Shown here one piece after another: positions 13,477 through 60,097 of a stretch of 64,000 nt of DNA (position 1 is the stretch's first letter; every line of letters starts with the position of its first letter). The position numbers were made by a program, and so were the translations under genes. The stretch lies in assembly GCA_020348385.1 (NCBI GenBank), contig CP070750.1, forward strand, positions 4,264,520 to 4,328,519. The letters are read 5' to 3'. Below the pieces are notes generated by a model. The model worked only from the letters and a program-made list of their open reading frames with translations. It was not told the DNA's origin and made no database searches. Origin of the DNA: Candidatus Aminicenantes bacterium (GTDB lineage: Bacteria; Acidobacteriota; Aminicenantia; Aminicenantales; Aminicenantaceae).

Positions 13477-15081
13477 TCAGCGACCGATATCCTCTCTTGT
13501 CTCCCGATCTCTCCAGGAAAGAGCACCCGTCGGACAGGCCGAGACACATGCGGCGGCTGCTTTTTCCAATCCTTGGTTGAGCGGCACACCCAATGACGGT
13601 TGGACGCGAACATCGAATCCGCGGTTAACAAAAACCAGCCCGAATTTTTCACCTGCTTTTTTCGTGATTTGCACGCATAATCCGCACTTGATACATTTCC
13701 CGGACTCATAAACGACCTTGTCATGCTGGATGTTTTTCTGGAATTTTTTCCTTTCCACGAAGGTGAAACGGCGCTGGCTGGCCTTGTATTCTTCGGCATA
13801 TTGCCGCAATTTGCATGTATCGGGTTTGCGGCAATCACAGCCGAAACAGCGCCTGGATTCGCTGACTGCTTCAGAATCTGTGTAGCCTTGGTTATTAAAA
13901 TTGGCGGGAACAATCCTCTCCTGCTCTGTCGCTTCCTTCAGGAATTCACCCGCTTCATCCTCCCGTGTTTTTCCCAGGATGGATTGAAATCTGGCAAAAG
14001 ATGCTGTAACCTCCTCGCCTTTTAAGAACTGGTTCACAGAAAACGCCAAATTTTTACCATGCGCCACGGCTCGGATGGCCATTTGCGATTCCGAAGCAGA
14101 AATCGCATTCCCACCGGCAAAATATCCCGGCACACTTGTTTGATAGGTCTTTCTGTCAATCATGATACCGCGGCGGGTAAGCTCGATGCCCGAAGATTCA
14201 AATAGATCGGGATCTGTTTTGCCGACAGCCAAGACAACCGCGTCATAAGCATTTTTCAGATCGTCCCAATTTAAATCCGTACCCAGAGATCGCTCCATTA
14301 AAAAGGCAGCCCCCATTTCAGCGATGCGATCGATTTCCTGATCCAGGACAGCCTTGGGCAAATTTTCATCGGAAACGCCATAACGGAGCATCCCACCCGG
14401 CTGCCGATTTTTGTCAAACACATCACAGGTATGCCCGAATTGGAGAATATAATAAGCGGTAGACAGGCCTGTGGGTCCGGCCCCGATGATGGCCACTTTT
14501 TTCCCTGTATTCAGAGTCATAATCGGTCGATAGGGAGACTTCTGCTCCAGATCGATATCCGCCACGTGCCTTTTCAGCAAACAGATCGATACAGGATCGT
14601 CATAAGAACCCCGGTGACAACCTTTTTCACAAGGAGCCGGGCAGATTCGACCCAAAACCGCAGGAAGGGCGATTTCTTTTTTTATGGTCTGGATCGCCTC
14701 CTCCAGCTGCCCTTCCCTGATTTGCCTTATCATAAGCGGGATGTTCATGTGGGCAGGGCAGGCACGTTGGCAGGGAGCATCACAATCGCCCACATGCTCA
14801 CTCAACAAAAAGTCCAAAGCATCCTTCCGTGCTTCCCGCACCAACTCATTTCCGGTCTCAATCCGCATTCCCTCGGAAACGACTGCCGAACATGCTGGAA
14901 GCAATTGTTCTGTGTTGGCTTCGTACACGACACAAATCATACAAGAGGTGAACCGTTCAAAACCATTCAAATAACACAGTGTGGGAATGTTTATATTCAG
15001 CTTTTTGGCCGCGTCCAGGATTGAGCCATCCACCGGAATGGCGATTTCCTGTCCGTCGATAGTTAATTTTACGTTTTTCAT
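13477..15081 (-). CDS. Iron-sulfur flavoprotein: NuoG-N-terminal-like [2Fe-2S]/[4Fe-4S] ferredoxin domain fused to a GltD/NfnB-like FAD/NAD(P)H oxidoreductase (StnA-like)
   Basis: Probable start is MKNVKLTIDGQEIAIPVDG at 15081, overlapping the upstream stop by ATGA. Cys motifs CDAPCQRACP and CPAPCEKGC. Dinucleotide-binding motif VAIIGAGPTGL. C-terminal CxxCxxC...CP clusters. Confidence 0.75.
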   Translation of the reverse strand: MKNVKLTIDGQEIAIPVDGSILDAAKKLNINIPTLCYLNGFERFTSCMICVVYEANTEQLLPACSAVVSEGMRIETGNELVREARKDALDFLLSEHVGDCDAPCQRACPAHMNIPLMIRQIREGQLEEAIQTIKKEIALPAVLGRICPAPCEKGCHRGSYDDPVSICLLKRHVADIDLEQKSPYRPIMTLNTGKKVAIIGAGPTGLSTAYYILQFGHTCDVFDKNRQPGGMLRYGVSDENLPKAVLDQEIDRIAEMGAAFLMERSLGTDLNWDDLKNAYDAVVLAVGKTDPDLFESSGIELTRRGIMIDRKTYQTSVPGYFAGGNAISASESQMAIRAVAHGKNLAFSVNQFLKGEEVTASFARFQSILGKTREDEAGEFLKEATEQERIVPANFNNQGYTDSEAVSESRRCFGCDCRKPDTCKLRQYAEEYKASQRRFTFVERKKFQKNIQHDKVVYESGKCIKCGLCVQITKKAGEKFGLVFVNRGFDVRVQPSLGVPLNQGLEKAAAACVSACPTGALSWRDRETREDIGR

Positions 15082-17438
15082 CTGATGTCCACCGATTCTG
15101 TCGGGCACACCTGCTTGCATGTCCCGCATTTGACACACTTCGTCTGATCGATTAAGTGCCGTTGGTAGGGGACTATGGCGATCGCACCGGCCGGACACTT
15201 TTGGGCACAAACGGTACAACCTATGCAGGTTTCATCGATCGTATACGTGATCAGCTCTTTGCATCGCTTGGCAGGGCAGATTCCTTTTAAATGAGCCTCG
15301 TATTCTTCCTTAAAGTAAGCCAGGGTTGTCAGGACGGGATTTGGGGCGGTTTTCCCCAGTCCACACAGACTGCCTCGTTTGGTTTTCTGGGCAATTTCTT
15401 CCAGCTTGTCAAGGTCTTCCTGTTTTCCTTTTCCGGCACACAGATCCTCCAGAATCTGCAGCATGTGCCGTGTGCCTATCCGACAAAAGGTGCATTTCCC
15501 GCAGGATTGGTTTTGCGTGAACGATAAAAAATACCGGGCGATGTCCACCATGCAGTCGGAATCATCCATCACCAACAAGCCACCCGAACCCATCATGGCA
15601 CCCGCATTGGTCAGGTCTTCGTAATCGACTCTGGTGTGGGCCATTTCGGCAGGAATGCAGCCGCCGGACGGCCCTCCGATTTGGACAGCCTTGAACGGTT
15701 TATCATTTTCGATGCCACCACCGATGTCCTGGACGATCTCTTGTATCGTGATGCCCATCGGAACCTCGATAAGCCCACCACGGGCAATTTTCCCCGCCAA
15801 GGAAAAAACTTTGGTTCCCTTGCTTTGGATTGTTCCCATCCGGGCAAATGCGTCCGCCCCATTCCGGATGATCCAGGGTACCGTGGCAAACGTCTCACAA
15901 TTGCTGACCAAGGTGGAATGGCCCCAGAGTCCTTTTTGGGCCGGATAGGGAGGCCTGAAACGGGGGTTCCCCCGTTTTCCTTCCAGGGAAGCAATCAGGG
16001 CCGTTTCTTCCCCGCAGACAAAGGCACCGGCTCCCTCAAGGATGTGCAACTCAAGCGAATATCCTCCCCCCATGATATTTTCCCTCAAAAGCCCGCATTC
16101 CCTGCATTGCCTCAGCGCATCTTTCACCCGCTGGACGGCGAGGGGATACTCCGCACGAATGTAAAAATATCCCTCACAGGCTCCCACCGTGTAGGCCGAA
16201 ATGATCATGCCCTCGATGACCCGAAACGGGTAGGATTCCAGGATCATCCTGTCCATGAATGCACCCGGGTCCCCTTCATCTCCGTTGCAGATGATGTATT
16301 TCGTATCATCTTGGGATTGCTGGACCACTTCCCACTTCTGCCCCGAGGAGAAACCAGCGCCTCCCCTTCCTCGCAGTCCGCTCGATTTGATTTGGCCGAG
16401 CACTGCTCCTGGAGAAGATTTGGTTAGACATAGTTCTAAGGCTTCAAATCCTCCTTTGGAGCGGTATTCTTCGAGATCGAGGGGATCGATCTGGCCGGAA
16501 TGTTCTGTGGCGATGTGTTTCTGTCTACCCAAAAAAGCTTGGATACTCGGATCCCGCATATGAAGGGGGTGGCGTGTAAATCCGTTGGCACGTGGGTCCT
16601 CGAGAATATTTTCAATAAATTGATATGCCGCAATTTTGATACGCTGGCTCAAGGATTTTGGTTTATAGTGTTTAAGAAGGATGTCCCGTACATCTTCCGG
16701 CTTTACGCTGTCATACAAAACAGGATCTTTTTCTGGAATATTCACTTCCAGAAGCGGTGTCCGGTGGCACATCCCCACACACCCGACCCTCTTGACCTGG
16801 GTGCTAATCCCCGTTTGTGCCAGTGACTTTTCCAGAGCCTGCTGCACACGTTGGCTTCCGCTGGCCACACAGCAGGAGCCCAACCCGATCTTGATTTCCC
16901 CAACTTTTTCAGTAGGGATTTTTAGATCACGAGCAGATTCCTCACTTCCGGCCGAGTGCCGAAGAAAATCCTGGATAATAGGGGCAACGCCATCTGTTTT
17001 CACATGTCCGTATGTCACATTGTCGATTTGAACGACTGGGGCGATGGTGCAGCAGCCAAGACATGCGATTTTTTGAACGGTGAATAAAAAATCTGGGTCT
17101 GTGTCTTGGCCATGTTCGATGTGCAGCTCGCGACAGAAAGCATCGTACACAAGCTCAGATCCTTTGACATGGCAAGCCGTGCCCGTACAAATCCGGATAA
17201 TGTGTTTCCCGATCGGGGTGTGCCGGAACTGAGAAAAAAAGGTCGACACACCTGTTATCGCGGCGGGTGTTATCTCGGTGACTTCACACACCCTCCGGAG
17301 GGCCTCCTCTGGAAGATAGTTATATTTTTTCTGAATGGCATGCAGGATCGGGATGACATCACCGGGTTTTGTGCCGATTTTTTCGACTACATTCTCGACA
17401 AAAGAAAGGATGCTGTCCGTCTCCGTCTCTTGTTTCAT
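15078..17438 (-). CDS. Fused NuoE-like (thioredoxin-like 2Fe-2S) and NuoF-like (FMN/NADH, 4Fe-4S) flavoprotein with C-terminal 2x[4Fe-4S] ferredoxin (HydB/HndC/StnB-like)
   Basis: NuoE-like Cys pattern ICTGTACHVKG...CLGCC. NuoF-like GAGAFVCGEETALIASLEG and glycine-rich FMN/NADH motifs. C-terminal CIGCTVCAQKCP...CVKCGTCKQVCP. Confidence 0.85.
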   Translation of the reverse strand: MKQETETDSILSFVENVVEKIGTKPGDVIPILHAIQKKYNYLPEEALRRVCEVTEITPAAITGVSTFFSQFRHTPIGKHIIRICTGTACHVKGSELVYDAFCRELHIEHGQDTDPDFLFTVQKIACLGCCTIAPVVQIDNVTYGHVKTDGVAPIIQDFLRHSAGSEESARDLKIPTEKVGEIKIGLGSCCVASGSQRVQQALEKSLAQTGISTQVKRVGCVGMCHRTPLLEVNIPEKDPVLYDSVKPEDVRDILLKHYKPKSLSQRIKIAAYQFIENILEDPRANGFTRHPLHMRDPSIQAFLGRQKHIATEHSGQIDPLDLEEYRSKGGFEALELCLTKSSPGAVLGQIKSSGLRGRGGAGFSSGQKWEVVQQSQDDTKYIICNGDEGDPGAFMDRMILESYPFRVIEGMIISAYTVGACEGYFYIRAEYPLAVQRVKDALRQCRECGLLRENIMGGGYSLELHILEGAGAFVCGEETALIASLEGKRGNPRFRPPYPAQKGLWGHSTLVSNCETFATVPWIIRNGADAFARMGTIQSKGTKVFSLAGKIARGGLIEVPMGITIQEIVQDIGGGIENDKPFKAVQIGGPSGGCIPAEMAHTRVDYEDLTNAGAMMGSGGLLVMDDSDCMVDIARYFLSFTQNQSCGKCTFCRIGTRHMLQILEDLCAGKGKQEDLDKLEEIAQKTKRGSLCGLGKTAPNPVLTTLAYFKEEYEAHLKGICPAKRCKELITYTIDETCIGCTVCAQKCPAGAIAIVPYQRHLIDQTKCVKCGTCKQVCPTESVDIR

Positions 17439-43611: not shown

Positions 43612-44280
43612 ATGGGAATCAACTTCCATCGTCGTTTTTTCTGTTTTTTCTTAGCCGCCCTTCTCTTCCTTCCGCTTGTTTCAACCAGCCATTCAAAAAC
43701 ACAAAAGGATAACCCAAATCTCGATCAAAGAGTCAGAAATTTTCTCGACAGCCACCGCCGTTCGTGGAGAGACATGAACGTATCGGAAATGGACGGAAAG
43801 ATACTGTACGATCTCATCATCAAGAACAATTACAAAAGAGCCCTGGAAATCGGAACATCCACCGGGCATTCGGGAATCTGGATCGCCTGGGCCCTAAGCA
43901 AAACCGGCGGTAAACTCATCACCATCGAAATAAACGAATGGCGCCACCGAGAAGCCCTGTCGAATTTTGAGGAGGCCGGGCTTTCCGATTACATCGATGC
44001 CAGGCTCGGGGATGCCCACGAACTTGTCCCCAAACTCCAAGGTCCCCTCGATTTTGTTTTCAGCGATGCAGATAAGGGATGGTACAAGAATTATCTCATT
44101 GCCGTTTTACCCAAACTCGAAGTGGGAGGGTGTTTCACAGCCCATAATGTGTCTGGAAGAAGACAGTATGGGATCGGAGAGTTTCTCGATTATCTGGAAA
44201 GTCTCCCCAACATGGAAACCACGATCGACCGATCCAGTTGGTCGGGCATTTCGATCAGCTACAAAAAATCGGAGAAATAA
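43612..44280 (+). CDS. Class I SAM-dependent O-methyltransferase (family 3, caffeoyl-CoA OMT-like) with N-terminal hydrophobic leader
   Basis: ALEIGTSTGHSGIWIAWAL (SAM motif I), GKLITIE, and DFVFSDADKGWY are typical of O-methyltransferase family 3. Leader MGINFHRRFFCFFLAALLFLPLVSTS. Confidence 0.75.
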   Translation: MGINFHRRFFCFFLAALLFLPLVSTSHSKTQKDNPNLDQRVRNFLDSHRRSWRDMNVSEMDGKILYDLIIKNNYKRALEIGTSTGHSGIWIAWALSKTGGKLITIEINEWRHREALSNFEEAGLSDYIDARLGDAHELVPKLQGPLDFVFSDADKGWYKNYLIAVLPKLEVGGCFTAHNVSGRRQYGIGEFLDYLESLPNMETTIDRSSWSGISISYKKSEK

Positions 44281-44332
44281 GCGCATGCCCAATTCCATTT
44301 CCTTTTCCGACGACGTGAATTATAATAAATCC

Positions 44333-45004
44333 ATGCGGATCCTGATCGTGGAAGACGACAAAAAAGTCGGGGGATTCTTGAAGAGGGGGCTTCAGGAAGA
44401 ACAATATGCTGTTGATGTGTGCCGCAACGGTGCCGATGCTCTGTACATGGCCCAGCTCAACCCGTACGATGTGATCATTTTGGATATCATGCTGCCAGGG
44501 ATGGACGGCTTCTCTGTTTGTCGGGAAATAAGACAAAAAGCTATCCTCACGCCGATCCTCATGTTGACAGCCAAAGACGAAATCGAGGATAAGGTGGCCG
44601 GGCTTTCCGAAGGCGCCGATGACTACCTGACCAAACCCTTCTCCTTCGATGAACTATTGGCCCGGATTCGCGCACTCCTCAGGAGAAGTCAGGATTACAA
44701 GACCAAAGTGTTGAAAGCGGGAGACCTGGAATTGGATCCTACGAGGCGGATGGTAACCAGATCAGGCAAAAAGATCGAGCTCACAGGCAAAGAATACGCT
44801 TTGTTGGAGTATTTGCTGCGAAGCCGAGGCAGAACCGTGACCCCATCCATGATCCTGGAACATGTCTGGGATATGGATTATATGGGATCCAGCAATATCG
44901 TGAATGTTTACATCAATCATCTCCGCAACAAGATCGATAAAGATTTTGATAACAAACTCATTCAAACCGTACGCGGCCATGGATTCAGGATCGATGAAGA
45001 TTAA
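44333..45004 (+). CDS. OmpR-family two-component response regulator
   Basis: MRILIVEDD...D...LMLTAKD receiver followed by a winged-helix trans_reg_C (LTGKEYALLEYLLRSRGRTVT...VRGHGFRI). Alternative upstream ATG at 44285. Confidence 0.9.
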   Translation: MRILIVEDDKKVGGFLKRGLQEEQYAVDVCRNGADALYMAQLNPYDVIILDIMLPGMDGFSVCREIRQKAILTPILMLTAKDEIEDKVAGLSEGADDYLTKPFSFDELLARIRALLRRSQDYKTKVLKAGDLELDPTRRMVTRSGKKIELTGKEYALLEYLLRSRGRTVTPSMILEHVWDMDYMGSSNIVNVYINHLRNKIDKDFDNKLIQTVRGHGFRIDED

Positions 45005-46421
45005 AAAATTCCGGTCACTCAGCTTCAAACTTACGCTCTGGTATGTCGTCATCCTGGGAGGAATCATCATCCTGGCGGGGATTTTTCAATATCAAGGATT
45101 CAAAGACGGCCTCCTGCATGACTTGGATGTCAAGCTCCTCGAGATCGCCGACGAAACATATGAATCCTGGTACCGTGAGCGAGGTGTGTCCTGGGAAGAT
45201 GCCATCCAGAAGTCAAAAATCAGGTTCCAATCTTACCAACCGCTGATCCAACTGGTCCAACTGGGTGAAAAAGACAAAAAAAAGATCGAAAAGGTTATTC
45301 GCGATCCACAAATTCCAGAGAAAAGTTTTCTGTTTGATAATAAAACATATTACCAGGCCGATCGCTCTGATATCGATAGTCTGATCTACGAGACTTTAAT
45401 AGAAAAAAAACTGGGCGCCTATCCCGTTCGCACCCTTCTATTTCCCATAAGAGGACCTAATATCATGCAGGTGGGGATTTCGCTGGAAAAAACCGAGCTC
45501 GATCTGAGAAGACTGATGATCGTCATGTTTCTCGCAGGAGGCGGGTTGATGCTGCTGGCTTCTTTGGGAGGTAACTTCATCATCCGGAAGGCCCTAAAAC
45601 CGGTCAAGAGTGTCGTGCGAACAGCAAAGGATATCACAGCCGATGACCTGTCCCTGCGGATCGAGGCTGGAAAACGGAAAGATGAGATCGGAGAACTGGT
45701 TGATACCATTAATGATATGATCTCCCGGTTGGAAAAATCGGTCAAAAAAATCAAACAATTCAGCGGCGATGTCTCCCACGAGTTGAGAACGCCGCTGACC
45801 ATCATTCGTGGTGAGATCGAAGTGCTTCTCCGGAAAGAGCGCAGCAAAGAAGAGTATCAAAAAACATTGAAGAGCAATCTCGAAGAGGCTGCCTATCTGG
45901 AGCGGATAATCGATGACCTGCTTTTCCTGTCCCGAATCGAAGCTCTGGAAAAAAAAGAGTTCGACAAGTCGGTCCCGTTGGATGAGATCCTGCTCAAAGT
46001 CCTGGAAAGCCAGGAGCTTGCTGCAAAAAAGGAAAGCATAACACTGGATATCAAAAAGGTAGAACCCGCCCAAATCAAAGGTGAAGAAATCTTGTTGGAA
46101 AGGATGATCGCCAACATCGTCGACAATGCCATCCGGTACACACATCCGGGAGGAAAAGTGGAAGTCAGCCTGGATAAAAAGAACGGGATATACACCCTCC
46201 AAGTACAAGACACGGGCTCCGGGATACCGGAGGAATCACTCCCCCTGATCTTCGACCGTTTTTACGTCGTGGATAAATCCCGCTTCAAGGAAACGGGCGG
46301 TTTGGGACTGGGCCTCTCCATCGTCAAACAGGTGGCCGATTGCCACGGGGGAAAAATCGAAGTGGAGAGCGAACTGAACGAAGGGACCAAGTTCCTCATC
46401 CGCTTCCCGGAAACACAATAA
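44994..46421 (+). CDS. Sensor histidine kinase (two TM, HAMP, HisKA, HATPase_c)
   Basis: Start overlaps the response-regulator stop. H-box SHELRTPLT. N/G1/G2 boxes (IVDNAIRYT, DTGSGIP, GGLGLGLSIV). Confidence 0.9.
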   Translation: MKIKKFRSLSFKLTLWYVVILGGIIILAGIFQYQGFKDGLLHDLDVKLLEIADETYESWYRERGVSWEDAIQKSKIRFQSYQPLIQLVQLGEKDKKKIEKVIRDPQIPEKSFLFDNKTYYQADRSDIDSLIYETLIEKKLGAYPVRTLLFPIRGPNIMQVGISLEKTELDLRRLMIVMFLAGGGLMLLASLGGNFIIRKALKPVKSVVRTAKDITADDLSLRIEAGKRKDEIGELVDTINDMISRLEKSVKKIKQFSGDVSHELRTPLTIIRGEIEVLLRKERSKEEYQKTLKSNLEEAAYLERIIDDLLFLSRIEALEKKEFDKSVPLDEILLKVLESQELAAKKESITLDIKKVEPAQIKGEEILLERMIANIVDNAIRYTHPGGKVEVSLDKKNGIYTLQVQDTGSGIPEESLPLIFDRFYVVDKSRFKETGGLGLGLSIVKQVADCHGGKIEVESELNEGTKFLIRFPETQ

Positions 46422-52949: not shown

Positions 52950-55223
52950 TTACTCAATGTTCCACTTTCCATTTTTCAAGTACTGATCGATGGATTGAGC
53001 CGCATTTTTTCCCGCACCCATCGCAAGGATAACGGTGGCCGCACCCGAAACGATATCGCCACCGGCAAAAACACCCTTTTTCGATGTCCGGCCCGTTTCT
53101 TCATCAGCCACGATGTTTCCCCATTTTGTCAGTTTTAGGTCGGGTGTTGTCGAAGTCAACAAAGGATTGGGCCCCTGGCCGATGGCCACGACCACCATAT
53201 CCACATCGATGACATGCTCAGAGCCCTCAATAGCAACGGGACGCCTCCGGCCAGAATCATCCGGCTCTGTCAGTTCCATCTGGACACATTCCAATCCTTT
53301 GACCCACCCTCTATCATCGCCCAAGATCCGTACAGGATTGGTTAACAAACGGGATTCGATGCCTTCTTCAAATGCATTTTCGATCTCCTCTTCCCGAGCA
53401 GGCATTTCCTCGCGGGATCTCCGGTAAACCAGGTAGACCTTTTCTGCACCCAAGCGAAGGGAAGTTCGAGCTGAATCCATGGCCACGTTCCCTCCGCCGA
53501 TGACCGCGATCCTTTGGCCAAGACGGATGGGCGTGTTGTATTCGGGAAAAAGATAAGCTTTCATCAGATTGACTCGTGTCAAAAACTCATTCGCCGAATA
53601 AACGCCGTTCAGGTTCTCTCCCGGAATATTCAGAAAATAGGGCAATCCTGCCCCAGTCCCTATAAACACCGCATCGTATCCATCCTCGAGAAGCTGGTCC
53701 ACTGTTTTGGCTTTGCCCACGATATAACTGACTTTGATATCCGCTCCCAACTTCCCGATGTAATCGCTCTCCCTCTGGACAATCCATTTAGGGAGACGAA
53801 ACTCGGGAATGCCGTAAACAAGAACCCCTCCCGGTGCATGAAGAGCCTCGAAAACCGTGACTCCGTGACCGATCTTGCACAATTCCCCGGCAACAGTGAG
53901 CCCAGCAGGGCCGGCCCCGATAACGGCAATCCTTTTCCCGGTGGATTCGGGAAGCTTCGGGACGCGTGTTTCGCCCTGGTTGAATTCATAATCCGCCACA
54001 AACCGTTCCAACCGCCCTATGGCGACGGGATCTTTTTTCTTCCCTAGGATACATTCCACCTCACACTGCTCCTCTTGAGGGCATACTCTGCCGCACACGG
54101 CAGGCAGGCTGTTTTTTTCCTTGATCTTGTGGATGGCGCCCATGAAATCGCCTTCTTTAATTTTGGCGACAAACGCCGGAATATCGATATCCACCGGGCA
54201 TCCGGCCACACAAAAGGCTTTTTTACACTGGAGACAGCGTGAGGCCTCGCGCATGGCTTGCTCCCGGGTGTATCCCAGTGCCACCTCGTCAAAATTCTGG
54301 ATCCGCATTTTGGGATCCTGTTTGGGCATGGGCTCCCGTTTGTTTGCTCTTTTGAGGTTATCTTCGGCTTGCTGCAGCCGGCATTCATAATCCCACATGG
54401 CGCGGTGTTCTTCCCGGATATACATCTCTGAGCGTTGCATGAGCTCGTCAAAATCGACCTGATGGCCGTCAAACTCCGGCCCATCCACACAAACGAATTT
54501 TGTTTCTCCTCCGACTGTGATCCGACATCCGCCGCACATGCCTGTCCCATCCACCATCAAGGAGTTGAGGCTCACGATGGTTTTGATGCCCGGCTCCTTT
54601 GTGATATCGGCCACGGCCTTCATCATTATCCCTGGGCCTACGGCCACGACTTTATTGATCTCTGTTCCATCTGAAAGAAGCTTTTTCAGCACATCCGTTA
54701 CAAATCCACGATGCCCTGCGGAGCCATCATCTGTAGCGATATCCAGCTCGTCACTTATCGCCCGCATCTCGTCTTCCAGGATGAGCATTTCCTTGGATCT
54801 TGCCCCGATGATGGAAATGATGCGGTTTCCCGCTTGTTTAAGCGCTTTGGTTATCGGGTACACAGGAGCGACACCGACGCCCCCTCCGATACACACCACG
54901 GTTCCCTCGCTCTCTATTTCTGTCGCCTCACCCAAGGGACCGACAACATCGAGAAAAGAATCTCCCACATTCAAGGAATCCATTTTTCGTGTTGCTGTCC
55001 CCACAACCTGTGCGATTAGCGTGATGGTCTCTTCTTTTATGTCTTTATCCGCCACCGTTAAGGGGACTCGCTCGGCATAATCATCTGTCCGGATGACGAC
55101 GAACTGCCCCGCTTTCACAGCATTGGCAACCACCGGTGTGTGTATTTTGAACAATGTGATGGAGGGAGCTATGCTCTCTTTATGGATAATCTCATTCAAC
55201 TTGTATCTTTCATTAATGCTCAT
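52950..55223 (-). CDS. Fused NfnA/SudB-like (FAD/[2Fe-2S] ferredoxin-NADP reductase-type) and NfnB/GltD-like (2x[4Fe-4S], FAD, NADPH) oxidoreductase
   Basis: N-terminal PyrK/SudB-like domain (GTVVCIGGGVGVAPV...CGGC). C-terminal GltD-like domain with CLQCKKAFCVAGCP, VCPQEEQCEVEC, and Rossmann motifs IAVIGAGPAGL and IAVIGGGNVAMD. Probable start is MSINERYKL at 55223, preceded by AAGAGG. Confidence 0.8.
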   Translation of the reverse strand: MSINERYKLNEIIHKESIAPSITLFKIHTPVVANAVKAGQFVVIRTDDYAERVPLTVADKDIKEETITLIAQVVGTATRKMDSLNVGDSFLDVVGPLGEATEIESEGTVVCIGGGVGVAPVYPITKALKQAGNRIISIIGARSKEMLILEDEMRAISDELDIATDDGSAGHRGFVTDVLKKLLSDGTEINKVVAVGPGIMMKAVADITKEPGIKTIVSLNSLMVDGTGMCGGCRITVGGETKFVCVDGPEFDGHQVDFDELMQRSEMYIREEHRAMWDYECRLQQAEDNLKRANKREPMPKQDPKMRIQNFDEVALGYTREQAMREASRCLQCKKAFCVAGCPVDIDIPAFVAKIKEGDFMGAIHKIKEKNSLPAVCGRVCPQEEQCEVECILGKKKDPVAIGRLERFVADYEFNQGETRVPKLPESTGKRIAVIGAGPAGLTVAGELCKIGHGVTVFEALHAPGGVLVYGIPEFRLPKWIVQRESDYIGKLGADIKVSYIVGKAKTVDQLLEDGYDAVFIGTGAGLPYFLNIPGENLNGVYSANEFLTRVNLMKAYLFPEYNTPIRLGQRIAVIGGGNVAMDSARTSLRLGAEKVYLVYRRSREEMPAREEEIENAFEEGIESRLLTNPVRILGDDRGWVKGLECVQMELTEPDDSGRRRPVAIEGSEHVIDVDMVVVAIGQGPNPLLTSTTPDLKLTKWGNIVADEETGRTSKKGVFAGGDIVSGAATVILAMGAGKNAAQSIDQYLKNGKWNIE

Positions 55224-55233
55224 TTTTGACCTC

Positions 55234-56721
55234 TTAGTCTTTGCGATGCTCAAGCGGAAGGAACACAGAAAAGATGCTTCCTTTATCGGGTTCGCTCGTC
55301 ACCTCGATGCGTCCAAAATGGGAATTCACGATTTTGCTGGCTATCGTGAGGCCGAGTCCCGTACCGGGTATTTTTTTTGTCCTTTCATCATCGGCTCTGT
55401 AGAAATCATCGAAAATACAGGAAAGGTGTTCGGCTGAAATACCGATGCCCGTGTCCTTTATCCTATAGCAGACAAAGTTGCCTTCAACCTTGCCTTCAAG
55501 GAAGACCGATCCGTTTTTCCTGTTGTATTTGATCGCATTGCTTATCAAATTGGTGAAAAGCTTTTCCATGTCTCTCACATCAGCCTGGATCGAGGGAAGG
55601 TCTTCTGCCAATTCGGCCGCGATGGACACCTTGTGTTTTTCGGCATCCGGTCCAAGCAAATCCACGATTTTGAGGATGATATCATTAATTTTAACAGGGC
55701 CCATCTTTTGTGCGACCTTGCCTGTTTCCATCCGGTTGATCACAAGGAGATCATCGACAAGAGCCAACAAAGAGTCAGAACGGTCCATGGCCCGCTGAAG
55801 CCACTGCTTATTCTGCTCAGCATCCCCCCCAGCCTCTCCTGAAACAACCACCTCCAGCCAACCTTTGATCGCAGCCATCGGCGCCCTGAGCTCATGGGCG
55901 ACCATCGATACAAACTGTGACTTGATCTTGTTGATTTCCTTGAGTGCTGTGATGTCTCTAAGAACCGTCACTGCCCCAAGGATTTTGCCATCCTCGTCCC
56001 TGACAGGCGCAATATTGGCCATCAAAATGACCTTTTCATCCTGAGCGGGAATCTCGTGACTTATCATCGAAAAATCCTGATCGTCCGAATTCAAGATCTC
56101 TTTGATGGCTACGATAAGCGGTTCATTCGAAATGTAATACTCGAGGGGTTCTCCGGCTATATCAAAACCCTTGGACTTAAGCATCTTGACACTGGAAGCA
56201 TTCCATAGCACCAACCGACCTTCCAGATTGGCCACCAAAACGCCATCGGCCATACATCCGATAATCGTGCGCAACCGGCTTCTCTCGTTCACAAGCTCCA
56301 GCATTTTTTGCGTCCTCTCAGCATAGAGTTTTTTCGCTTCTAGACGGAGCATCCGCTTTTCCAATCCGCGCTTAACCACTACGGAAAGTGCCTCGGGTGA
56401 GAAGGGTTTGGGCAGATAATCGTATGCGCCAAGCTTTGTCGCTTCCACGGCTGTTTCTATCGTTGCATTCCCTGTTATCACGACCGTTATGATCTCGGGA
56501 TCACAATGATGAACTTTTTTGATCAGTTCCATGCCTCCTATCCCCGGCATCATCAAGTCCACCAAGATGAGGTCATAATTTTTCTCTTTCACCTTCTGGA
56601 GGCCCGTCTTGCCATCCTCTGCAGCATCTACGGCATAACCTTCTTCGGAGAGAGCTCGCTTGCAGCCCTCCCGGATTCCCATCTCATCATCCACGATCAG
56701 GATGTTCGCTTCTGTGTTCAA
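55234..56721 (-). CDS. Hybrid two-component protein: N-terminal receiver (REC), PAS-like region, HisKA, HATPase_c
   Basis: ILIVDDE...DLILVDLMMPG...ITGNA receiver. H-box VAHELRAPMAAI. N/G boxes LISNAIKYN, DTGIGI, GTGLGLTIA. Confidence 0.85.
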   Translation of the reverse strand: MNTEANILIVDDEMGIREGCKRALSEEGYAVDAAEDGKTGLQKVKEKNYDLILVDLMMPGIGGMELIKKVHHCDPEIITVVITGNATIETAVEATKLGAYDYLPKPFSPEALSVVVKRGLEKRMLRLEAKKLYAERTQKMLELVNERSRLRTIIGCMADGVLVANLEGRLVLWNASSVKMLKSKGFDIAGEPLEYYISNEPLIVAIKEILNSDDQDFSMISHEIPAQDEKVILMANIAPVRDEDGKILGAVTVLRDITALKEINKIKSQFVSMVAHELRAPMAAIKGWLEVVVSGEAGGDAEQNKQWLQRAMDRSDSLLALVDDLLVINRMETGKVAQKMGPVKINDIILKIVDLLGPDAEKHKVSIAAELAEDLPSIQADVRDMEKLFTNLISNAIKYNRKNGSVFLEGKVEGNFVCYRIKDTGIGISAEHLSCIFDDFYRADDERTKKIPGTGLGLTIASKIVNSHFGRIEVTSEPDKGSIFSVFLPLEHRKD

Positions 56722-56722
56722 T

Positions 56723-57124
56723 TTAATCCTCTTTTTCTCCGATTAATTTTTCGACTTTGCTGATGAGAACCGCAGGTTCGACGGGTTTGTCGAGAAACTC
56801 ATCTGTTTTCATCCAGTAGCCGTCCTTCTCTAACGAAAACTTGAAGCCTGTTGCATCGGCCACGGCTGTCACCATCAGGATGGGGATTTTTTTAAATAAC
56901 GGATCGCTTTTGATCTGTTTGCTGAAGGAAAATCCAGCATCATGTTTTTCCATCATCAAATCCAAGACGATCAGATCTGGCATTTCTGCTCGCACTTTTT
57001 CCAATCCCTCTTGAGCACTGGTGGCAGTTATCACCTCGTATCCGTGATTCACCAACACAACTTTATGCATTTCGAGAAAATCCAGATCATCATCCACCAA
57101 TAAGATTCGTTTTTTTAGAGTCAT
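56723..57124 (-). CDS. Single-domain response regulator (CheY-like receiver only)
   Basis: RILLVDDDLDFLEM...DLIVLDLMME...ILMVTA...K. 133 aa with no output domain. Confidence 0.85.
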   Translation of the reverse strand: MTLKKRILLVDDDLDFLEMHKVVLVNHGYEVITATSAQEGLEKVRAEMPDLIVLDLMMEKHDAGFSFSKQIKSDPLFKKIPILMVTAVADATGFKFSLEKDGYWMKTDEFLDKPVEPAVLISKVEKLIGEKED

Positions 57125-59180
57125 CTTCCCCTCCTTTCTGCACTTTATTCAAATTAACAATCTTACTCTCGCCCTTCATCCACTCTTTTTGATCCAAAAC
57201 AGGAAGCTGAATGAAAAATTCTGCTCCTTTTCCCAACTCGCTTTTCACATCGATCGTCCCCTTGTGTTTGGACACAATCCCGTAGACTAGAGCCAACCCT
57301 AGCCCTGTCCCTTTTCTCTTTGTCGTGAAAAAAGGATCAAAAAGACGGGAAAGGTGTTCCTCTGCAATTCCTTTCCCCGTATCTTGAATCTGGATTTCGA
57401 TCGCGCTCCTCCCGTTTTTAGATTGACTTCTGATTGTCAAAACACCACTCCCTTCCATGGCTTGAGCCCCGTTCAGGATGATGTTGAAAAAGACCTGCTT
57501 GAGCAGATCAGGGACGGCAAACGTGGTCGGGATCGAGGCCTCCAGTTCTTGTTTCACCTCAATATTCCGGAATAAGGATCGTTTGATGAGAAGAGAGACC
57601 GCCTCTTCGATAATACTGTTGATGTTCACAAGCCCGGGTTTCCATTGGGTCTCCCGAGAAAAACCCAACAGGTCCTTGACTATCTTGGCAGCTCTTTCTG
57701 CCTCTTTGATGACAAGGTCGATGTCCTTTTCCCACTTAGGATTGTGAGCCAAATCTTTCTTCAGCATGCTGCTGAAAAGGGTGATCGTTCCCAAGGGATT
57801 GTTCAATTCGTGGGCCACGCCGGCTGCCAACTGACCGATCGAAGCCAGCTTTTCCGACTGGATGAGCTGTCTCTGGGCCTTTTCCAATTCCTCATGTGAA
57901 ATTTTAAGCTCCTGATGAGATTTCTCCAGACGGGAGTACAGGCGTCGTGATTGGGTGAGAAGATAATGCATGCACATTTCTTTATCCGCCAGACCCTGCA
58001 TGACGGCGATGGCCTTCTCGCGGCAGGTGTTGAAACCACATGCTCCGCAATCCAGATTCCGATTGGGATAGGTCTTGCCCAATTCAGCCAAAACAGCCCG
58101 GATCTCTTCTTCCTTCGGCTCTGGCAGAGATATATCTTGAACAGAAAAGGCGCGTTCAAGGTCCATTGAGGTCAATTTTATAGCAACGTCTTTATCTCCT
58201 TCCCAAACCTCCTCGCTTTGAGACTCAAAAAAATCCACGACAATCTGCTTTCGGCCCGGTCCCGAAATATTCTTGTCCACGATAGGCCCATCGATGCAGC
58301 CTTGACAAAAAAGCACATCGAGAAACTTGGGTCGGATGGCCCCATCCTGCAATTGTTGGAGAGCCCTTATGGCACTCTTCGGACCCGCCGTAATCACGTT
58401 ATCCAAATTCACCAAGTCCTGTTCGAACCCAACGCATTTGGACATTCCGCCAGAGACGCTGAGCACTCTGCCAAGACCCGGCTGAGGTCCATCAAACGCG
58501 GATTCCTTCTGCTTTTCTCGCCTGCTGCCTTTGGCGTTGAGTATATCTCTGTTATCGTGGTAGGTCAGAACACAATCAACGATCCCAGCCAGATGGGGGA
58601 TACGGCACTCATGAATCCGGGAGATACAGGAGCCGAAAAACACCACTTTGGTCTCATCTCCCCGAAGCTTCTTGATGGCTTTACCTGTCGCCACCATCGG
58701 CGAAACCACAGGCAAGAGATGATCGACCAACTGTGGTGCAAATTTTTCGATGTAAAGCACGACCGAGGGACAGAATGAAGAGATATAGGACGTCTTGGCG
58801 TCTTTCCACAGCCATTTTCGATACTCCCGGCTGATCAGGTCTCCGCCGAGAGCAGATTCCCATACTTCCTGGAATACTAGCTTTTTCAGGGCCGTCACCA
58901 ACTGACCCGGCGTTCCCACATCCAGAACAGCCGGGAAAGTGGGATCGAGGCACGCGATCATCTTTTCCCCCGCGTCCAGGCCATCCAAAACCAAGTTCAC
59001 GCCTGTTTGTGTCTGGACAGCCCCATGCGGGCAGTACTTGTAACAGGATCCGCATAATATACAGCGGTTCTCGATCCGAACCACTTTCCTCTGCTCAAGC
59101 ATCAAGGCATTGGTGGGGCAATCCCGCACACACCGGCCGCACAACCGACACTTCTGCCTTGAAATGCTTAAATATTCCAT
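57090..59180 (-). CDS. Sensory [FeFe]-hydrogenase-like (HydS-type H-domain) histidine kinase with N-terminal 2x[4Fe-4S] ferredoxin domain
   Basis: N-terminal CRLCGRCVRDCP + CILCGSCYKYCP. H-domain-like motifs SSFCPSV (cf. TSCCP, first Cys replaced by Phe), FFGSCISRIHE (cf. MPCxxKxxE, Met replaced by Gly), FCQGCIDGP (cf. CxxGCxxG). CGACGFNTC-x16-C matches Cx2Cx4Cx16C. These are followed by a coiled coil, H-box AAGVAHELNNPLG, and N/G boxes ILNGAQAM, DTGKGI, GTGLGLALV. Confidence 0.75.
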   Translation of the reverse strand: MEYLSISRQKCRLCGRCVRDCPTNALMLEQRKVVRIENRCILCGSCYKYCPHGAVQTQTGVNLVLDGLDAGEKMIACLDPTFPAVLDVGTPGQLVTALKKLVFQEVWESALGGDLISREYRKWLWKDAKTSYISSFCPSVVLYIEKFAPQLVDHLLPVVSPMVATGKAIKKLRGDETKVVFFGSCISRIHECRIPHLAGIVDCVLTYHDNRDILNAKGSRREKQKESAFDGPQPGLGRVLSVSGGMSKCVGFEQDLVNLDNVITAGPKSAIRALQQLQDGAIRPKFLDVLFCQGCIDGPIVDKNISGPGRKQIVVDFFESQSEEVWEGDKDVAIKLTSMDLERAFSVQDISLPEPKEEEIRAVLAELGKTYPNRNLDCGACGFNTCREKAIAVMQGLADKEMCMHYLLTQSRRLYSRLEKSHQELKISHEELEKAQRQLIQSEKLASIGQLAAGVAHELNNPLGTITLFSSMLKKDLAHNPKWEKDIDLVIKEAERAAKIVKDLLGFSRETQWKPGLVNINSIIEEAVSLLIKRSLFRNIEVKQELEASIPTTFAVPDLLKQVFFNIILNGAQAMEGSGVLTIRSQSKNGRSAIEIQIQDTGKGIAEEHLSRLFDPFFTTKRKGTGLGLALVYGIVSKHKGTIDVKSELGKGAEFFIQLPVLDQKEWMKGESKIVNLNKVQKGGEDDSKKTNLIGG

Positions 59181-59204
59181 GGGACTCGAAGGATTATTTG
59201 CCTT

Positions 59205-59885
59205 CTAGCTTGTCAGCCTTTCGATCTCATCGATCAAGACTTTGGGGCTCACGGGTTTATCCAGGAGAACATCCGCCCCGCTGATTTTCAGGACATCATC
59301 GCTGGATGAAAAATCCAAGTTCGTCTGCGCACTGATCGAGGTCAATAACATGACGGGGAGATCTTTGTGCTTTTGCTTGATCTTCTCGCTGGCTTTGAAA
59401 CCCGAATCGAACTGCTCCATCATGACATCGAGAATAACGATGTCAGGTTTAGCCTCATCTAAGACAGCCATGCATTCCTTCGAGCTCCGGGCTGTAACGA
59501 CCGCATAACCCCTATGCTCCAACACAGCAGTATGCATTTCTAAAAAATCTCTATCATCATCCACAAGAAGGACCTTTTTAGGCGTTCCCTCCACCTGCTT
59601 GCTGTCTTTTTTCGTCACCAATGAGAGGATACGGCGAAGACTCTCAGGATCTTCGATCGCTTCCTCGACTTTTGTGACCAATTGATCACCCTCGTAATAA
59701 GAGTACTCGATCTTGCAATCGCACTGGACGTGGCAGCGGAAGATTTGTTTCATCGCATCTTCCGTGTCCGCAATATCCAGCTTTTCGCCTTCAAAATAAG
59801 GACAGGCCGTCCACTCCCCCGGACTTATCATTTCCTGACATTCCGGACAATACACTTGAATGAAAGGTTTCGTCTTATTTTCCAT
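59205..59885 (-). CDS. Response-regulator receiver protein with N-terminal Cys-rich (zinc-ribbon-like) domain
   Basis: N-terminal CPECQEMISPGEWTACPYFEG...CHVQCDC (7 Cys + His). C-terminal receiver VLLVDDDRDFLEM...DIVILDVMME...VMLLTS...K. No DNA-binding domain. Confidence 0.75.
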   Translation of the reverse strand: MENKTKPFIQVYCPECQEMISPGEWTACPYFEGEKLDIADTEDAMKQIFRCHVQCDCKIEYSYYEGDQLVTKVEEAIEDPESLRRILSLVTKKDSKQVEGTPKKVLLVDDDRDFLEMHTAVLEHRGYAVVTARSSKECMAVLDEAKPDIVILDVMMEQFDSGFKASEKIKQKHKDLPVMLLTSISAQTNLDFSSSDDVLKISGADVLLDKPVSPKVLIDEIERLTS

Positions 59886-60040
59886 TATTCCCTGCTCCTG
59901 TTATAAAAAGCCTATTATTATAGATTATGATTTAAACACAGATTTTGTTAGGTTAATGCCAAATGATGGCTATTTATCTTATCAAATACCTCAGAAATTC
60001 AGTAATTTATATTTTAAACGAAACAGGGTGATATTTCAAT

Positions 60041-60097
60041 AAAAAAGGGGACGGTTCTATTTTTTTTGTTAAAAAAAATAGAACCGTCCCCTTTTTT
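60041..60097. repeat. Perfect 27-bp inverted repeat with a 3-nt loop (A-run/GC-core/T-run on both arms). Candidate bidirectional intrinsic terminator or operator.
   Basis: aaaaaaggggacggttctatttttttt-gtt-aaaaaaaatagaaccgtcccctttttt read directly at 60041-60097. It lies in the divergent spacer between genes ending/starting at 59885 and 60150. Confidence 0.5.

Follow-up and report, generated by a model that had tools for sequence, protein, structure and literature searches.

Introduction

What does a hydrogenase-type sensor control when its gene is followed by that of an NADH/NADPH/ferredoxin transhydrogenase? This question is raised by a locus of Candidatus Aminicenantes bacterium (assembly GCA_020348385.1) located in a 64,000-nucleotide stretch of contig CP070750.1, positions 4,264,520 to 4,328,519, hereafter called the window. 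Five minus-strand genes of the window (region 52950-59885) encode a hydrogenase-like sensor kinase, a second kinase, three receiver (REC) domains and, at the end, a fused NfnA-NfnB oxidoreductase. Putative sensory [FeFe] hydrogenases, studied by spectroscopy for years, pose the question of what they signal to; those characterised carry a PAS domain at their end or no further domain. The family described here ends in a canonical kinase with identifiable partners, so that its output should be readable by standard phosphorylation assays. Histidine-kinase-linked sensory [FeFe] hydrogenases are a known class; new here are the nfn cargo, a clade-specific Cys-rich receiver and the systematic loss of an H-cluster lysine. 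The cassette resembles a regulatory module of hydrogenase operons that has been put to a new use with nfn. With about evenly balanced confidence, we propose that the operon couples a hydrogenase-derived Fe-S sensor kinase to the fused NfnAB via a kinase cascade and small receivers.

Results

Operon structure

The five genes and the candidate promoter in front of them are located as follows (calls from open reading frames (ORFs), from ORF and Pfam for genes 3 and 4, and from ORF and NCBIfam for gene 5):

60011..60039 (-): sigma-70-like promoter TTGAAA-17-TAAAAT 5' of gene 1, 10/12 consensus positions
59205..59885 (-): gene 1, 226 aa, Cys-rich N-terminal domain plus REC
57090..59180 (-): gene 2 (HK1), 696 aa, HydS-type [FeFe]-hydrogenase-like sensor plus histidine kinase
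56723..57124 (-): gene 3, 133 aa, stand-alone REC
55234..56721 (-): gene 4 (HK2), 495 aa, TTG start, REC-PAS-HisKA-HATPase_c hybrid
52950..55223 (-): gene 5, 757 aa from ATG, fused NfnA-NfnB

The coordinates and junctions of the original prediction (24, -35, 1 and 10 nt from gene 1 to gene 5) were reproduced exactly; for gene 5, the mechanical ORF list gives a 767-aa version from TTG instead of the 757 aa counted from ATG. Shine-Dalgarno motifs are clear for four genes and weak for gene 2, with a strong AGGAGG for gene 3 inside the 3' end of gene 2 and an AAGAGG for gene 5, 10 nt past the gene 4 stop. The promoter listed above is the best consensus match of the region and predicts a 5' untranslated region of about 120 nt. 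L081, at 85% identity the closest related locus compared, has the same promoter and parts of the leader despite a different upstream neighbour gene, and L083 and L085 share a different common promoter, TTGACC-N17-TATACT. Independent internal promoters and terminators were also looked for. Promoter-like matches inside the genes are weak and occur at chance frequency (10 found versus 8.6 expected from shuffles), and no strong terminator was found between the five genes when the window sequence was scanned. An Rfam search of the whole window returned no known RNA family and hence no known riboswitch in the leader of about 120 nt; for a sigma-54 (-24/-12) promoter or a Rex box the leader was read by eye only, without a convincing match. 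The 35-nt overlap of genes 2 and 3 is kept at 32-35 nt in L081, L083, L085, L086 and L088. Gene order, overlap and a promoter 5' of gene 1 recur in related lineages whose flanks differ, which upholds the predicted operon. Judged from these sequence features, co-transcription of the five genes is very likely, and the locus is a real, coherent and conserved unit.

Two further features of this region were observed. In every Aminicenantes locus examined, the final approximately 11 codons of the kinase gene and the initial approximately 11 of the small REC gene occupy the same stretch in different frames (57090-57124 in the window), and the nearly invariant C-terminal 'LIG(G)' tail of the sensor kinase is maybe conserved as sequence that also encodes the REC start (MTLKKRILLVDD). 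Further, a perfect 27-nt inverted repeat with a 3-nt loop (AAAAAAGGGGACGGTTCTATTTTTTTT / complement), the longest in the window, occupies 60041-60097 between two divergent genes (59885 minus, 60150 plus), against the -35 of both predicted promoters. It resembles a bidirectional intrinsic terminator. The palindrome was rejected as an operator of the operon, since it has a single copy in the window and L081 lacks it although the promoter is retained there.

The terminal gene and its linkage to the signalling genes

The two modules of gene 5 are:

54369-55199 (-): NfnA part
52959-54344 (-): NfnB part

The protein scored above the curated cutoffs of the fused NfnA/NfnB model NF009414 (1110.1 bits, cutoff 1103), the NfnA-type model PRK06222 (400 bits, cutoff 220) and the NfnB-type model TIGR01316 (621 bits, cutoff 472). 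Matches to individual crystallised proteins reached 627 bits for Thermotoga maritima NfnB (4ylf_B), 324 bits for the Pyrococcus furiosus NfnI small subunit (5jca_S) and 272 bits for T. maritima NfnA. By these family cutoffs gene 5 is assigned as NfnAB, in a family where paralogues with other specificities exist. In a single chain, an NfnA module (FAD/NAD, [2Fe-2S]) precedes an NfnB module (two [4Fe-4S], FAD/NADP). The same order is found in the published 'Pattern B' Nfn of Clostridium autoethanogenum (CAETHG_RS07665), whose gene also has the identical length of 2,274 bp, and in Bacteroidaceae, Prevotellaceae and Fusobacteriaceae (PMC6405883). The fusion had been regarded as uncommon; as a published form with its own NCBIfam model it is not the point of novelty, and the term Aminicenantes does not occur in the Pattern B survey (PMC6405883). 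What sets gene 5 apart is its linkage to the cassette: in published nfn operons control is exerted by the NADH sensor Rex, and none was reported with a two-component cassette (PMC6405883).

We determined how constant this linkage is by a metagenome scan with an alignment of the sensor domain only, which gave 80 loci onto which the window proteins were mapped by tblastn. Some of these loci are the same contigs seen twice, so that the counts are not fully independent. The genes downstream of the sensor kinase were, by clade:

Clade at >=57% identity (core clade): REC, hybrid kinase and in-frame NfnA+NfnB in 30/30 loci with at least 5.3 kb downstream
Clade at 42-49% identity (sister clade): the same set in 11/13 loci; one more with NfnA farther away
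Clade at ~40% identity: the set in 0/3 loci; an NtrC-type sigma-54 regulator follows the kinase instead

Orthologous loci with the kinase genes apart from nfn would have spoken against a functional unit; the genes were found linked in all 30 core and in 11 of the 13 sister loci, and the kinase-nfn linkage is clearly not accidental. The five-gene order is kept in five divergent Aminicenantes lineages with 59-85% sensor-kinase identity, among which the neighbours of the cassette change completely. These comprise glycoside hydrolases, PPDK and glutamate dehydrogenase, a [NiFe] Hox/Hyp cluster, a NuoEF-formate-dehydrogenase-like cluster and a HydS/NuoE/NuoF hydrogenase-type cluster. In L090 (41% identity), the Nfn arrangement is present in the same order without gene 1. 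An adjacent DNA-binding regulator was found in none of the annotated Nfn-linked loci.

Several neighbours of the cassette are of interest in their own right. In L085 (1965-8941) and L090 (2682-9557), which have 61% and 41% sensor-kinase identity, the same five genes precede the cassette. They encode NuoE-like, NuoF-like and molybdopterin formate-dehydrogenase/NuoG-like proteins as well as separate NfnA-like (284-287 aa) and NfnB-like (473-498 aa) proteins, and two Nfn-type modules therefore flank the signalling genes. In L088 (14504-20370; the contig of L132), the fused nfn is directly followed by genes for a DRTGG protein, an HATPase_c protein and a 417-aa kinase-less HydS-like protein and then by DRTGG, PHP, HATPase_c, NuoE-like and NuoF-like genes, so that two distinct hydrogenase-like sensors are encoded next to each other in one organism. 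L083 has a second HydS cluster of a similar kind on the opposite strand, the end of which lies about 5 kb 5' of gene 1; in that locus a [NiFe] HoxH/HypA/HypB set is located just 3' of nfn. Glutamate dehydrogenase genes are found within a few kb of the cassette in L083 (5452-6804), L085 (1-1169 and 16576-17862) and L086 (1612-2868), with a pair of PPDK_N-domain genes also nearby in L085 and L086. This recurrence is a hint that the Nfn cassette is connected with amino-acid oxidation (NADPH).

Relatives of the sensor kinase in hydrogenase operons

A scan of a genome collection with full-length alignment gave 13 true sensor relatives among the 80 matches listed, none of the matches listed being from Aminicenantes. 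Among these matches, the 13 relatives have 33-39% identity and belong to Planctomycetota, Ignavibacteriota, Myxococcota, Bacteroidota and Elusimicrobiota. In all 13, the sensor kinase is followed by a REC-kinase hybrid, with a small REC between them everywhere except in the Elusimicrobiota locus. In Bacteroidota, Ignavibacteriota, Myxococcota and Planctomycetota this sensor-kinase/REC/REC-kinase triad follows hydA in hydABC operons, and several of these operons carry hydG/hydF/hydE maturase genes 3' of the triad. The Bacteroidota locus L006, for example, reads hydC-hydB-hydA(A6)-sensor kinase-REC-REC-kinase-hydG-hydF-hydE, where the NCBIfam names upstream are NuoE-like, NuoF-like and group A6 [FeFe] hydrogenase (788 bits) and those downstream HydG, HydF and HydE. 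In the Planctomycetota locus L001, genes for a NuoF-GltD fusion and HydA precede the triad, and those for HydE and HydG come after it. A NarL-type (GerE) regulator, or Rex plus RibF, is added in some Bacteroidota loci, and in one further relative the kinase is followed by an NtrC-type regulator (Sigma54_activat+HTH_8) and then by a NuoE-like gene. The kinase-fused sensor family is thus a companion of bifurcating [FeFe] hydrogenases. The suggestion that the relay is linked to H2/reductant balance is backed by this comparative context, with the triad placed after hydA in hydABC operons elsewhere.

Three Bacteroidota hydrogenase operons (L005 5124-5642, L006 5091-5705, L012 5237-5731) were additionally seen to start with a stand-alone REC. 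It belongs to the subfamily of the small RECs of the window (DVMM...GF motif) and has an insertion of about 35 aa after beta-4; in L005 and L006 a NarL-type regulator is located 5' of it.

The HydS-type sensor kinase

Pfam analysis of gene 2 gave two Fer4 domains, Fe_hyd_lg_C, PF04060 FeS, HisKA and HATPase_c, with the following features:

59013..59168 (-): two ferredoxin-type [4Fe-4S] motifs, C11 C14 C17 C21 and C40 C43 C46 C50 (Fer4)
58284..58958 (-): H-cluster domain Fe_hyd_lg_C (Pfam, E 1.8e-38)
57969..58055 (-): C-terminal Cx2Cx4Cx16C motif, C378 C381 C386 C403 (PF04060, E 7.5e-8)
57198..57836 (-): HK1 kinase core, HisKA with H457 in AHELNNPL, then HATPase_c (Pfam)

The hydrogenase match (PF02906) covers profile positions 4-245 of 245 with an E-value of 1.8e-38. 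All 16 cluster cysteines are invariant in orthologues, including the eight of the N-terminal ferredoxin-type motifs (14 orthologues compared). The Cx2Cx4Cx16C motif, with invariant cysteines, directly precedes the helix that leads to the H-box. Of 151 aligned sequences (the window protein and 150 family representatives), 143 have this motif, and it is also described for TmHydS and TamHydS (PMC8163306). Residues of the H-cluster site were equated by alignment to T. maritima HydA and another solved HydA1 (CpI numbering):

L1 SSFCP: proton-relay Cys C299 = F136; ligand C300 = C137
L2 GSCISRxxE: M353 = G183; C355 = C185; K358 = R188; E361 = E191
L3 LFCQGC: M497 = L290; C499 = C292; C503 = C295, one residue fewer between the cysteines

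Gene 2 shares the hallmarks of sensory HydS proteins: the four H-cluster cysteine equivalents (C137, C185, C292, C295) are present and invariant, the two N-terminal [4Fe-4S] motifs and the C-terminal Cx2Cx4Cx16C motif are in place, and C299, Met353 and Met497 are all replaced (F136, G183, L290). None of the family representatives with a readable L1 motif has Cys at the C299 position, where Phe is found in Nfn-linked clades only. Loss of C299 and the exchange of M353 for Gly also typify the characterised HydS proteins (PMC8163306). Based on these residues, gene 2 is placed in the HydS-type family of putative sensory [FeFe] hydrogenases; its named homologues are all Candidatus Aminicenantes.

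In three respects the protein deviates. The L2 lysine (CpI K358 / CrHydA1 K228) is R188 in gene 2; Arg occupies this position in 50/50 sensors of the core clade and Gln or His in 17/17 of the sister clade, and the lysine is kept (GPC(I/V)AKKxE) in 13/13 hydABC-linked and 8/8 NtrC-linked relatives. In catalytic enzymes the lysine positions the distal CN ligand, and variants disturbing it fail to take up the [2Fe] cofactor (PMC9516953). The site may be re-tuned rather than dead, because Arg, Gln or His could still hydrogen-bond the CN ligand and the Glu partner is invariant. The L3 cysteines are spaced Cx2C instead of the canonical Cx3C. This spacing is a trait of the whole kinase-linked branch: it occurs in 72 of the 151 aligned sequences, compared with 74 with Cx3C, and in all 13 hydABC-linked kinase-fused relatives. 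Finally, the C-terminal cluster is not followed by the PAS domain that defines M2f/group C; HisKA and HATPase_c follow directly. The kinase has all motif boxes (AHELNNPL, NIILNGAQAM, DTGKGI, FDPFFTTK, GTGLGLA) with Pfam matches above the gathering score. Its core is best matched by AtoS (238 bits) and ZraS (197 bits) in NCBIfam and, among solved chains, by ZraS (9jfj_A, E 9e-42).

The Cys-rich receiver protein

59592..59885 (-): N-terminal domain of gene 1, ~98 aa, no annotation, candidate metal or Fe-S site
59223..59573 (-): receiver domain of gene 1, all phospho-acceptor residues (CheY alignment)

The N-terminal domain of gene 1 had been labelled a Zn-ribbon. Its invariant residues are C13, C28, C51, H52 and C55, five potential metal ligands; the second Cys of the CPEC motif (C16) is Leu in many orthologues, and C57 varies too. 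The two conserved CxxC/CxxH knuckles that mark the beta-hairpin fold of a classical zinc ribbon are thus not found, and an AlphaFold2 model of the domain (pLDDT 75, moderate confidence) had no significant structural neighbour. We conclude that it is better named a Cys-rich domain without assigned fold. Homologues of gene 1 number 377, nearly all of 226-232 aa, the named ones being Aminicenantes. The gene lies 5' of the sensor kinase in 52/52 core-clade loci (>=57% identity, at least 0.8 kb upstream); the Cys-rich domain was found in 0/13 sister-clade loci (42-49%) and was undetected in eight loci at ~40%.

The REC domain (residues 105-221; Pfam Response_reg, E 7e-19) has NtrC-family PgtA as its top NCBIfam match, and a model of it is closest to RR468 and YycF/PhoP-type receivers. 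It has 42.9% identity to the gene 3 REC and 25% to that of the hybrid.

Receivers, second kinase and wiring

Domains of gene 4 were called by Pfam:

56377-56703 (-): REC
55939-56277 (-): PAS
55720-55923 (-): HisKA
55249-55581 (-): HATPase

All five proteins were analysed with Pfam and NCBIfam, DNA-binding families being sought at E <= 0.01, and the domain matches have E-values far beyond chance. None of the five proteins matched an HTH or another DNA-binding family (Trans_reg_C, GerE, HTH_8, LytTR etc.) at this threshold, in line with the predicted lack of a DNA-binding output in the operon, and Pfam found no Hpt domain in any of them. Of the view that the output is post-transcriptional, the absence of an HTH stands; the mode of output does not follow from it, because an unlinked DNA-binding regulator is possible beyond the 64-kb window.

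Aligned to E. coli CheY, all three RECs keep the equivalents of D12, D13, D57, T87 and K109, as expected for functional receivers. They fall into two classes. The RECs of genes 1 and 3 (gene 3: Pfam Response_reg, E 4e-18; best NCBIfam matches PleD, PhoB and DivK-like receivers) are 43% identical and by this measure paralogues, and the REC of the hybrid has 25-28% identity to both. Best matches of the latter are the receivers of NtrX, AtoC and NtrC (95-104 bits). It also resembles the receivers of the NtrC-type regulators encoded beside sister sensor kinases (92-110 bits, 36-43% identity); against these, the RECs of genes 1 and 3 reach 38-49 bits. The two small RECs give a mixed picture in NCBIfam, where PhoB, RpaB, MtrA, PleD and DivK-like models score similarly. 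HK2 has complete motif boxes (AHELRAPM, NLISNAIKY, DTGIGI, FDDFYRAD, GTGLGLT), Pfam matches above the gathering score and a core best matched by PnpS, WalK and PhoR.

The original prediction of a branched phosphorelay is one option for the wiring. A His-Asp-His-Asp phosphorelay needs an Hpt or Spo0B-like phosphotransferase, whereas HK2 has a full ATP-binding domain, and the receiver types favour a kinase cascade of two tiers with branching confined to the last step, which we propose with moderate confidence based on sequence similarity. HK1 is assigned to the hybrid's receiver because its core is like AtoS and ZraS, which signal to NtrC-family regulators, because sister kinases adjoin NtrC-type regulators, and because the hybrid's REC, not the small RECs, resembles the receivers of those regulators. 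The Elusimicrobiota locus, with sensor kinase and REC-kinase and without a small REC, also counts for the cascade, as do the PnpS/WalK/PhoR-like core of HK2 and the resemblance of the gene 1 REC model to RR468 and YycF/PhoP-type receivers.

Discussion

Based on these findings, the following route of signal transfer can be envisaged. The redox or H2-binding state of the H-cluster-like site and the accessory clusters (the two N-terminal [4Fe-4S] clusters and the Cx2Cx4Cx16C cluster just before the kinase signalling helix) would set autophosphorylation of HK1. With its AtoS/ZraS-like core, HK1 would pass phosphate to the NtrC-like N-terminal receiver of the REC-PAS-kinase hybrid, and the phosphorylated receiver would switch HK2, whose core is PhoR/WalK-like. 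HK2 would then phosphorylate both paralogous stand-alone receivers, the 133-aa REC and the REC with the Cys-rich domain. These may act by protein-protein contact or through the Cys-rich domain, on Nfn directly or on an unlinked transcription partner; the target would be Nfn production or activity and probably unlinked redox genes too. Interconversion of NADPH, NADH and ferredoxin would thereby follow the H2/reductant load of the cell. A complete H-cluster and an H2 response of the gene 2 sensor are putative, by analogy with the hydrogenase context of relatives such as L006 and L001. The Nfn cassette of L088, which abuts a HydS/NuoE/NuoF hydrogenase-type cluster, counts for a tie to H2 metabolism.

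A number of points weigh against this proposal. Judged from sequence, the absence of the L2 lysine from every Nfn-linked sensor makes H2 sensing less certain than Fe-S redox sensing, and the Cx2C spacing of L3 departs from the canonical one. No hydEFG or hydABC gene is located in the 64-kb window. A survey of Hydrogenedentota hardly found H-cluster motifs in HATPase-bearing group C1 proteins (PMC11406978), and the histidine-kinase-fused HydS class is experimentally uncharacterised. As to the wiring, the genes of HK1 and the small REC overlap by a conserved 32-35 nt. Such an arrangement points to coupled translation, a typical feature of cognate pairs, and favours transfer from HK1 to the small REC. 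The route from the receivers to Nfn, or to any target, is entirely inferred.

Several alternatives are to be considered. The sensor might lack the [2Fe] subcluster, carry [4Fe-4S] clusters only and, instead of sensing H2, read the ferredoxin/low-potential pool or O2/oxidants, with the relay as proposed above. A redox-pool signal would suit the control of a ferredoxin-dependent transhydrogenase, and the L2 lysine, tied to [2Fe] insertion in the literature (PMC9516953), is replaced in all 67 Nfn-linked/Nfn-clade sensors as opposed to 0/21 hydABC- or NtrC-linked ones. Phe at the proton-relay position is likewise confined to Nfn-linked clades, and 0/80 metagenome loci have hydA directly upstream or hydE/F/G in the flank. 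Conservation of the four cysteines does not discriminate, since a bare [4Fe-4S] cluster needs the same four. However, Arg, Gln and His are all able to donate a hydrogen bond to the CN ligand, E191 is invariant and the remaining H-domain is strongly conserved. A maturation system should exist in L088, which has a second HydS and NuoE/NuoF-type subunits alongside, and characterised HydS proteins deviate strongly from catalytic enzymes yet bind the H-cluster (PMC8163306). We therefore regard a redox-only sensor as possible but rather unlikely. A serious rival for the wiring, to which we give a somewhat smaller chance, is that HK1 and the overlapping small REC form a cognate pair. The phosphorylated small REC would either pass phosphate to the DHp His of HK2 (Spo0F/Spo0B style) or bind HK2 (DivK/DivL style); a Spo0F-style relay would end on the REC with the Cys-rich domain, and the receiver of the hybrid itself would serve as a sink or for feedback. 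This is in agreement with the clade-wide overlap (4-32-nt overlaps also occur in some other phyla), with the order kinase-REC-(REC-kinase) kept across phyla and with the presence of three receivers for two kinases, which leaves room for a relay. It fits less well that the hybrid's REC, rather than the small REC, resembles the NtrC-type partner receivers of sister kinases, that complete H, N, G1, F and G2 motifs make HK2 a true kinase and not a Spo0B-like transferase, that the five proteins are without an Hpt domain in Pfam, and that one locus (Elusimicrobiota) is entirely without the small REC.

Other alternatives concern the role of nfn. It could be mere cargo, a member of the same redox regulon, with the relay controlling distant genes such as hydrogenase or fermentation operons via an unlinked DNA-binding regulator. 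A NarL-type regulator or Rex is found close to related Bacteroidota cassettes, the kinase of one clade is paired with an NtrC-type regulator, the published regulation of nfn is transcriptional and acts through Rex (PMC6405883), and our view is limited to 64 kb of the genome. Against this, the linkage is kept in 41/43 testable loci of two clades with all flanks changing, pointing to a direct functional tie, and annotated Nfn-linked loci have no adjacent DNA-binding regulator; we consider such a cargo role conceivable, although on the unlikely side. Very unlikely, in our estimate, is that the five genes do not form one operon and that nfn or HK2 has its own promoter, their adjacency being a historical accident. 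The consensus scan gave several weak promoter-like matches within genes, and a gap of roughly 100-200 nt precedes nfn in some relatives (L086, and L164 as judged from tblastn match ends). The junctions in the window are short, however, the internal matches are at the level of shuffled sequence, and order and orientation are kept in dozens of loci. The phosphorylated stand-alone receivers might also bind the fused NfnAB directly and switch its activity or direction, with the sensor of the Nfn-linked clades re-tuned from H2 to the ferredoxin pool (Lys to Arg/Gln/His) and one receiver carrying a new Cys4-His metal or Fe-S domain that is specific to the clade. We give this only a small chance; if true, a two-component system would post-translationally control an electron-bifurcating enzyme in response to an Fe-S/H2 sensor.

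The cascade proposed here can be compared with several known systems. Like TmHydS (T. maritima, group C/M2f) and TamHydS (Thermoanaerobacter mathranii, group D/M2e), the sensor has two N-terminal [4Fe-4S] motifs, a four-Cys H-domain and the Cx2Cx4Cx16C motif and has lost the proton-relay Cys, and M353 is replaced by Gly as in TmHydS. Where TmHydS continues with a PAS domain and TamHydS with nothing, a HisKA/HATPase_c kinase directly follows the C-terminal cluster here; also unlike both, L3 is Cx2C, the L2 lysine is Arg and the gene is found with nfn rather than beside a catalytic hydrogenase. Closer are the kinase-linked group C [FeFe] hydrogenases, which belong to the same family and share the fusion of H-domain and kinase (33-39% identity). 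HydDB lists group C1 as 'histidine kinase-linked (putative)'. Kinase-fused group C proteins next to trimeric group A hydrogenases have been noted in Elusimicrobia, Ignavibacterium and Caldithrix, and kinase-bearing group C proteins in Hydrogenedentota (PMC11406978). Unlike these relatives, which follow hydA in hydABC operons, the window sensor has a fused nfnAB as partner, its operon is led by an extra gene for a REC with a Cys-rich domain, and the L2 lysine is lost. A literature search found no paper on the REC and REC-kinase companions or on the Nfn linkage.

In Ralstonia eutropha, the catalytically poor H2-sensing hydrogenase HoxBC controls the kinase HoxJ and the NtrC-type HoxA. The outline is similar, with a hydrogenase-type sensor, a histidine kinase and an NtrC-type receiver in succession. 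HoxBC is, however, a [NiFe] protein separate from its kinase, and HoxA is a DNA-binding sigma-54 activator, whereas in the cassette a second kinase carries the NtrC-like receiver as a fused domain. Multi-kinase circuits without DNA-binding output and with receiver-kinase contacts are represented by RedCDEF of Myxococcus xanthus and by DivJ/PleC-DivK-DivL-CckA of Caulobacter. By general description, these share with the cassette two kinases and stand-alone receivers without a DNA-binding domain; sensory input, domain orders and cargo gene are all different. In HydDB, the [NiFe] regulatory hydrogenases of the HoxBC-HoxJ-HoxA type form group 2b, a class of H2 sensors.

The near-universal nfn linkage in two clades suggests that some anaerobes tie the control of an NADH/NADPH/ferredoxin transhydrogenase to an Fe-S/H2 sensor. 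The linkage would also offer a way into the redox homeostasis of Aminicenantes, a sediment lineage that is widespread and uncultured, and the clade-specific loss of the H-cluster lysine constitutes a natural experiment on the role of this residue.

Other genes of the window

A second NAD(P)H/ferredoxin module resembling Bfu-type NfnABC is encoded at 13477-17438 (-), within a long minus-strand gene cluster at 4245-26519. Its two proteins are, in this order, a 786-aa NuoE+NuoF fusion ([2Fe-2S] thioredoxin-like, Complex1_51K, NADH_4Fe-4S, Fer4) and a 580-aa GltD/NfnB-like protein (Fer2_4, Fer4_20, Pyr_redox_2). Their neighbours are many PQQ_2/beta-propeller repeat proteins, Fer4 proteins, an ABC/FtsX transporter and a glycosyltransferase. 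At 43967-46421 (+), overlapping ORFs encode an OmpR-type response regulator (REC and Trans_reg_C) and a HAMP-HisKA-HATPase_c kinase; this regulator, which lies apart from the cassette, is the sole DNA-binding response regulator among the large ORFs scanned. A 755-aa protein is encoded at 89-2356 (+), its only Pfam match being the GXGXG motif domain, as found at the C-terminus of the glutamate synthase large subunit.

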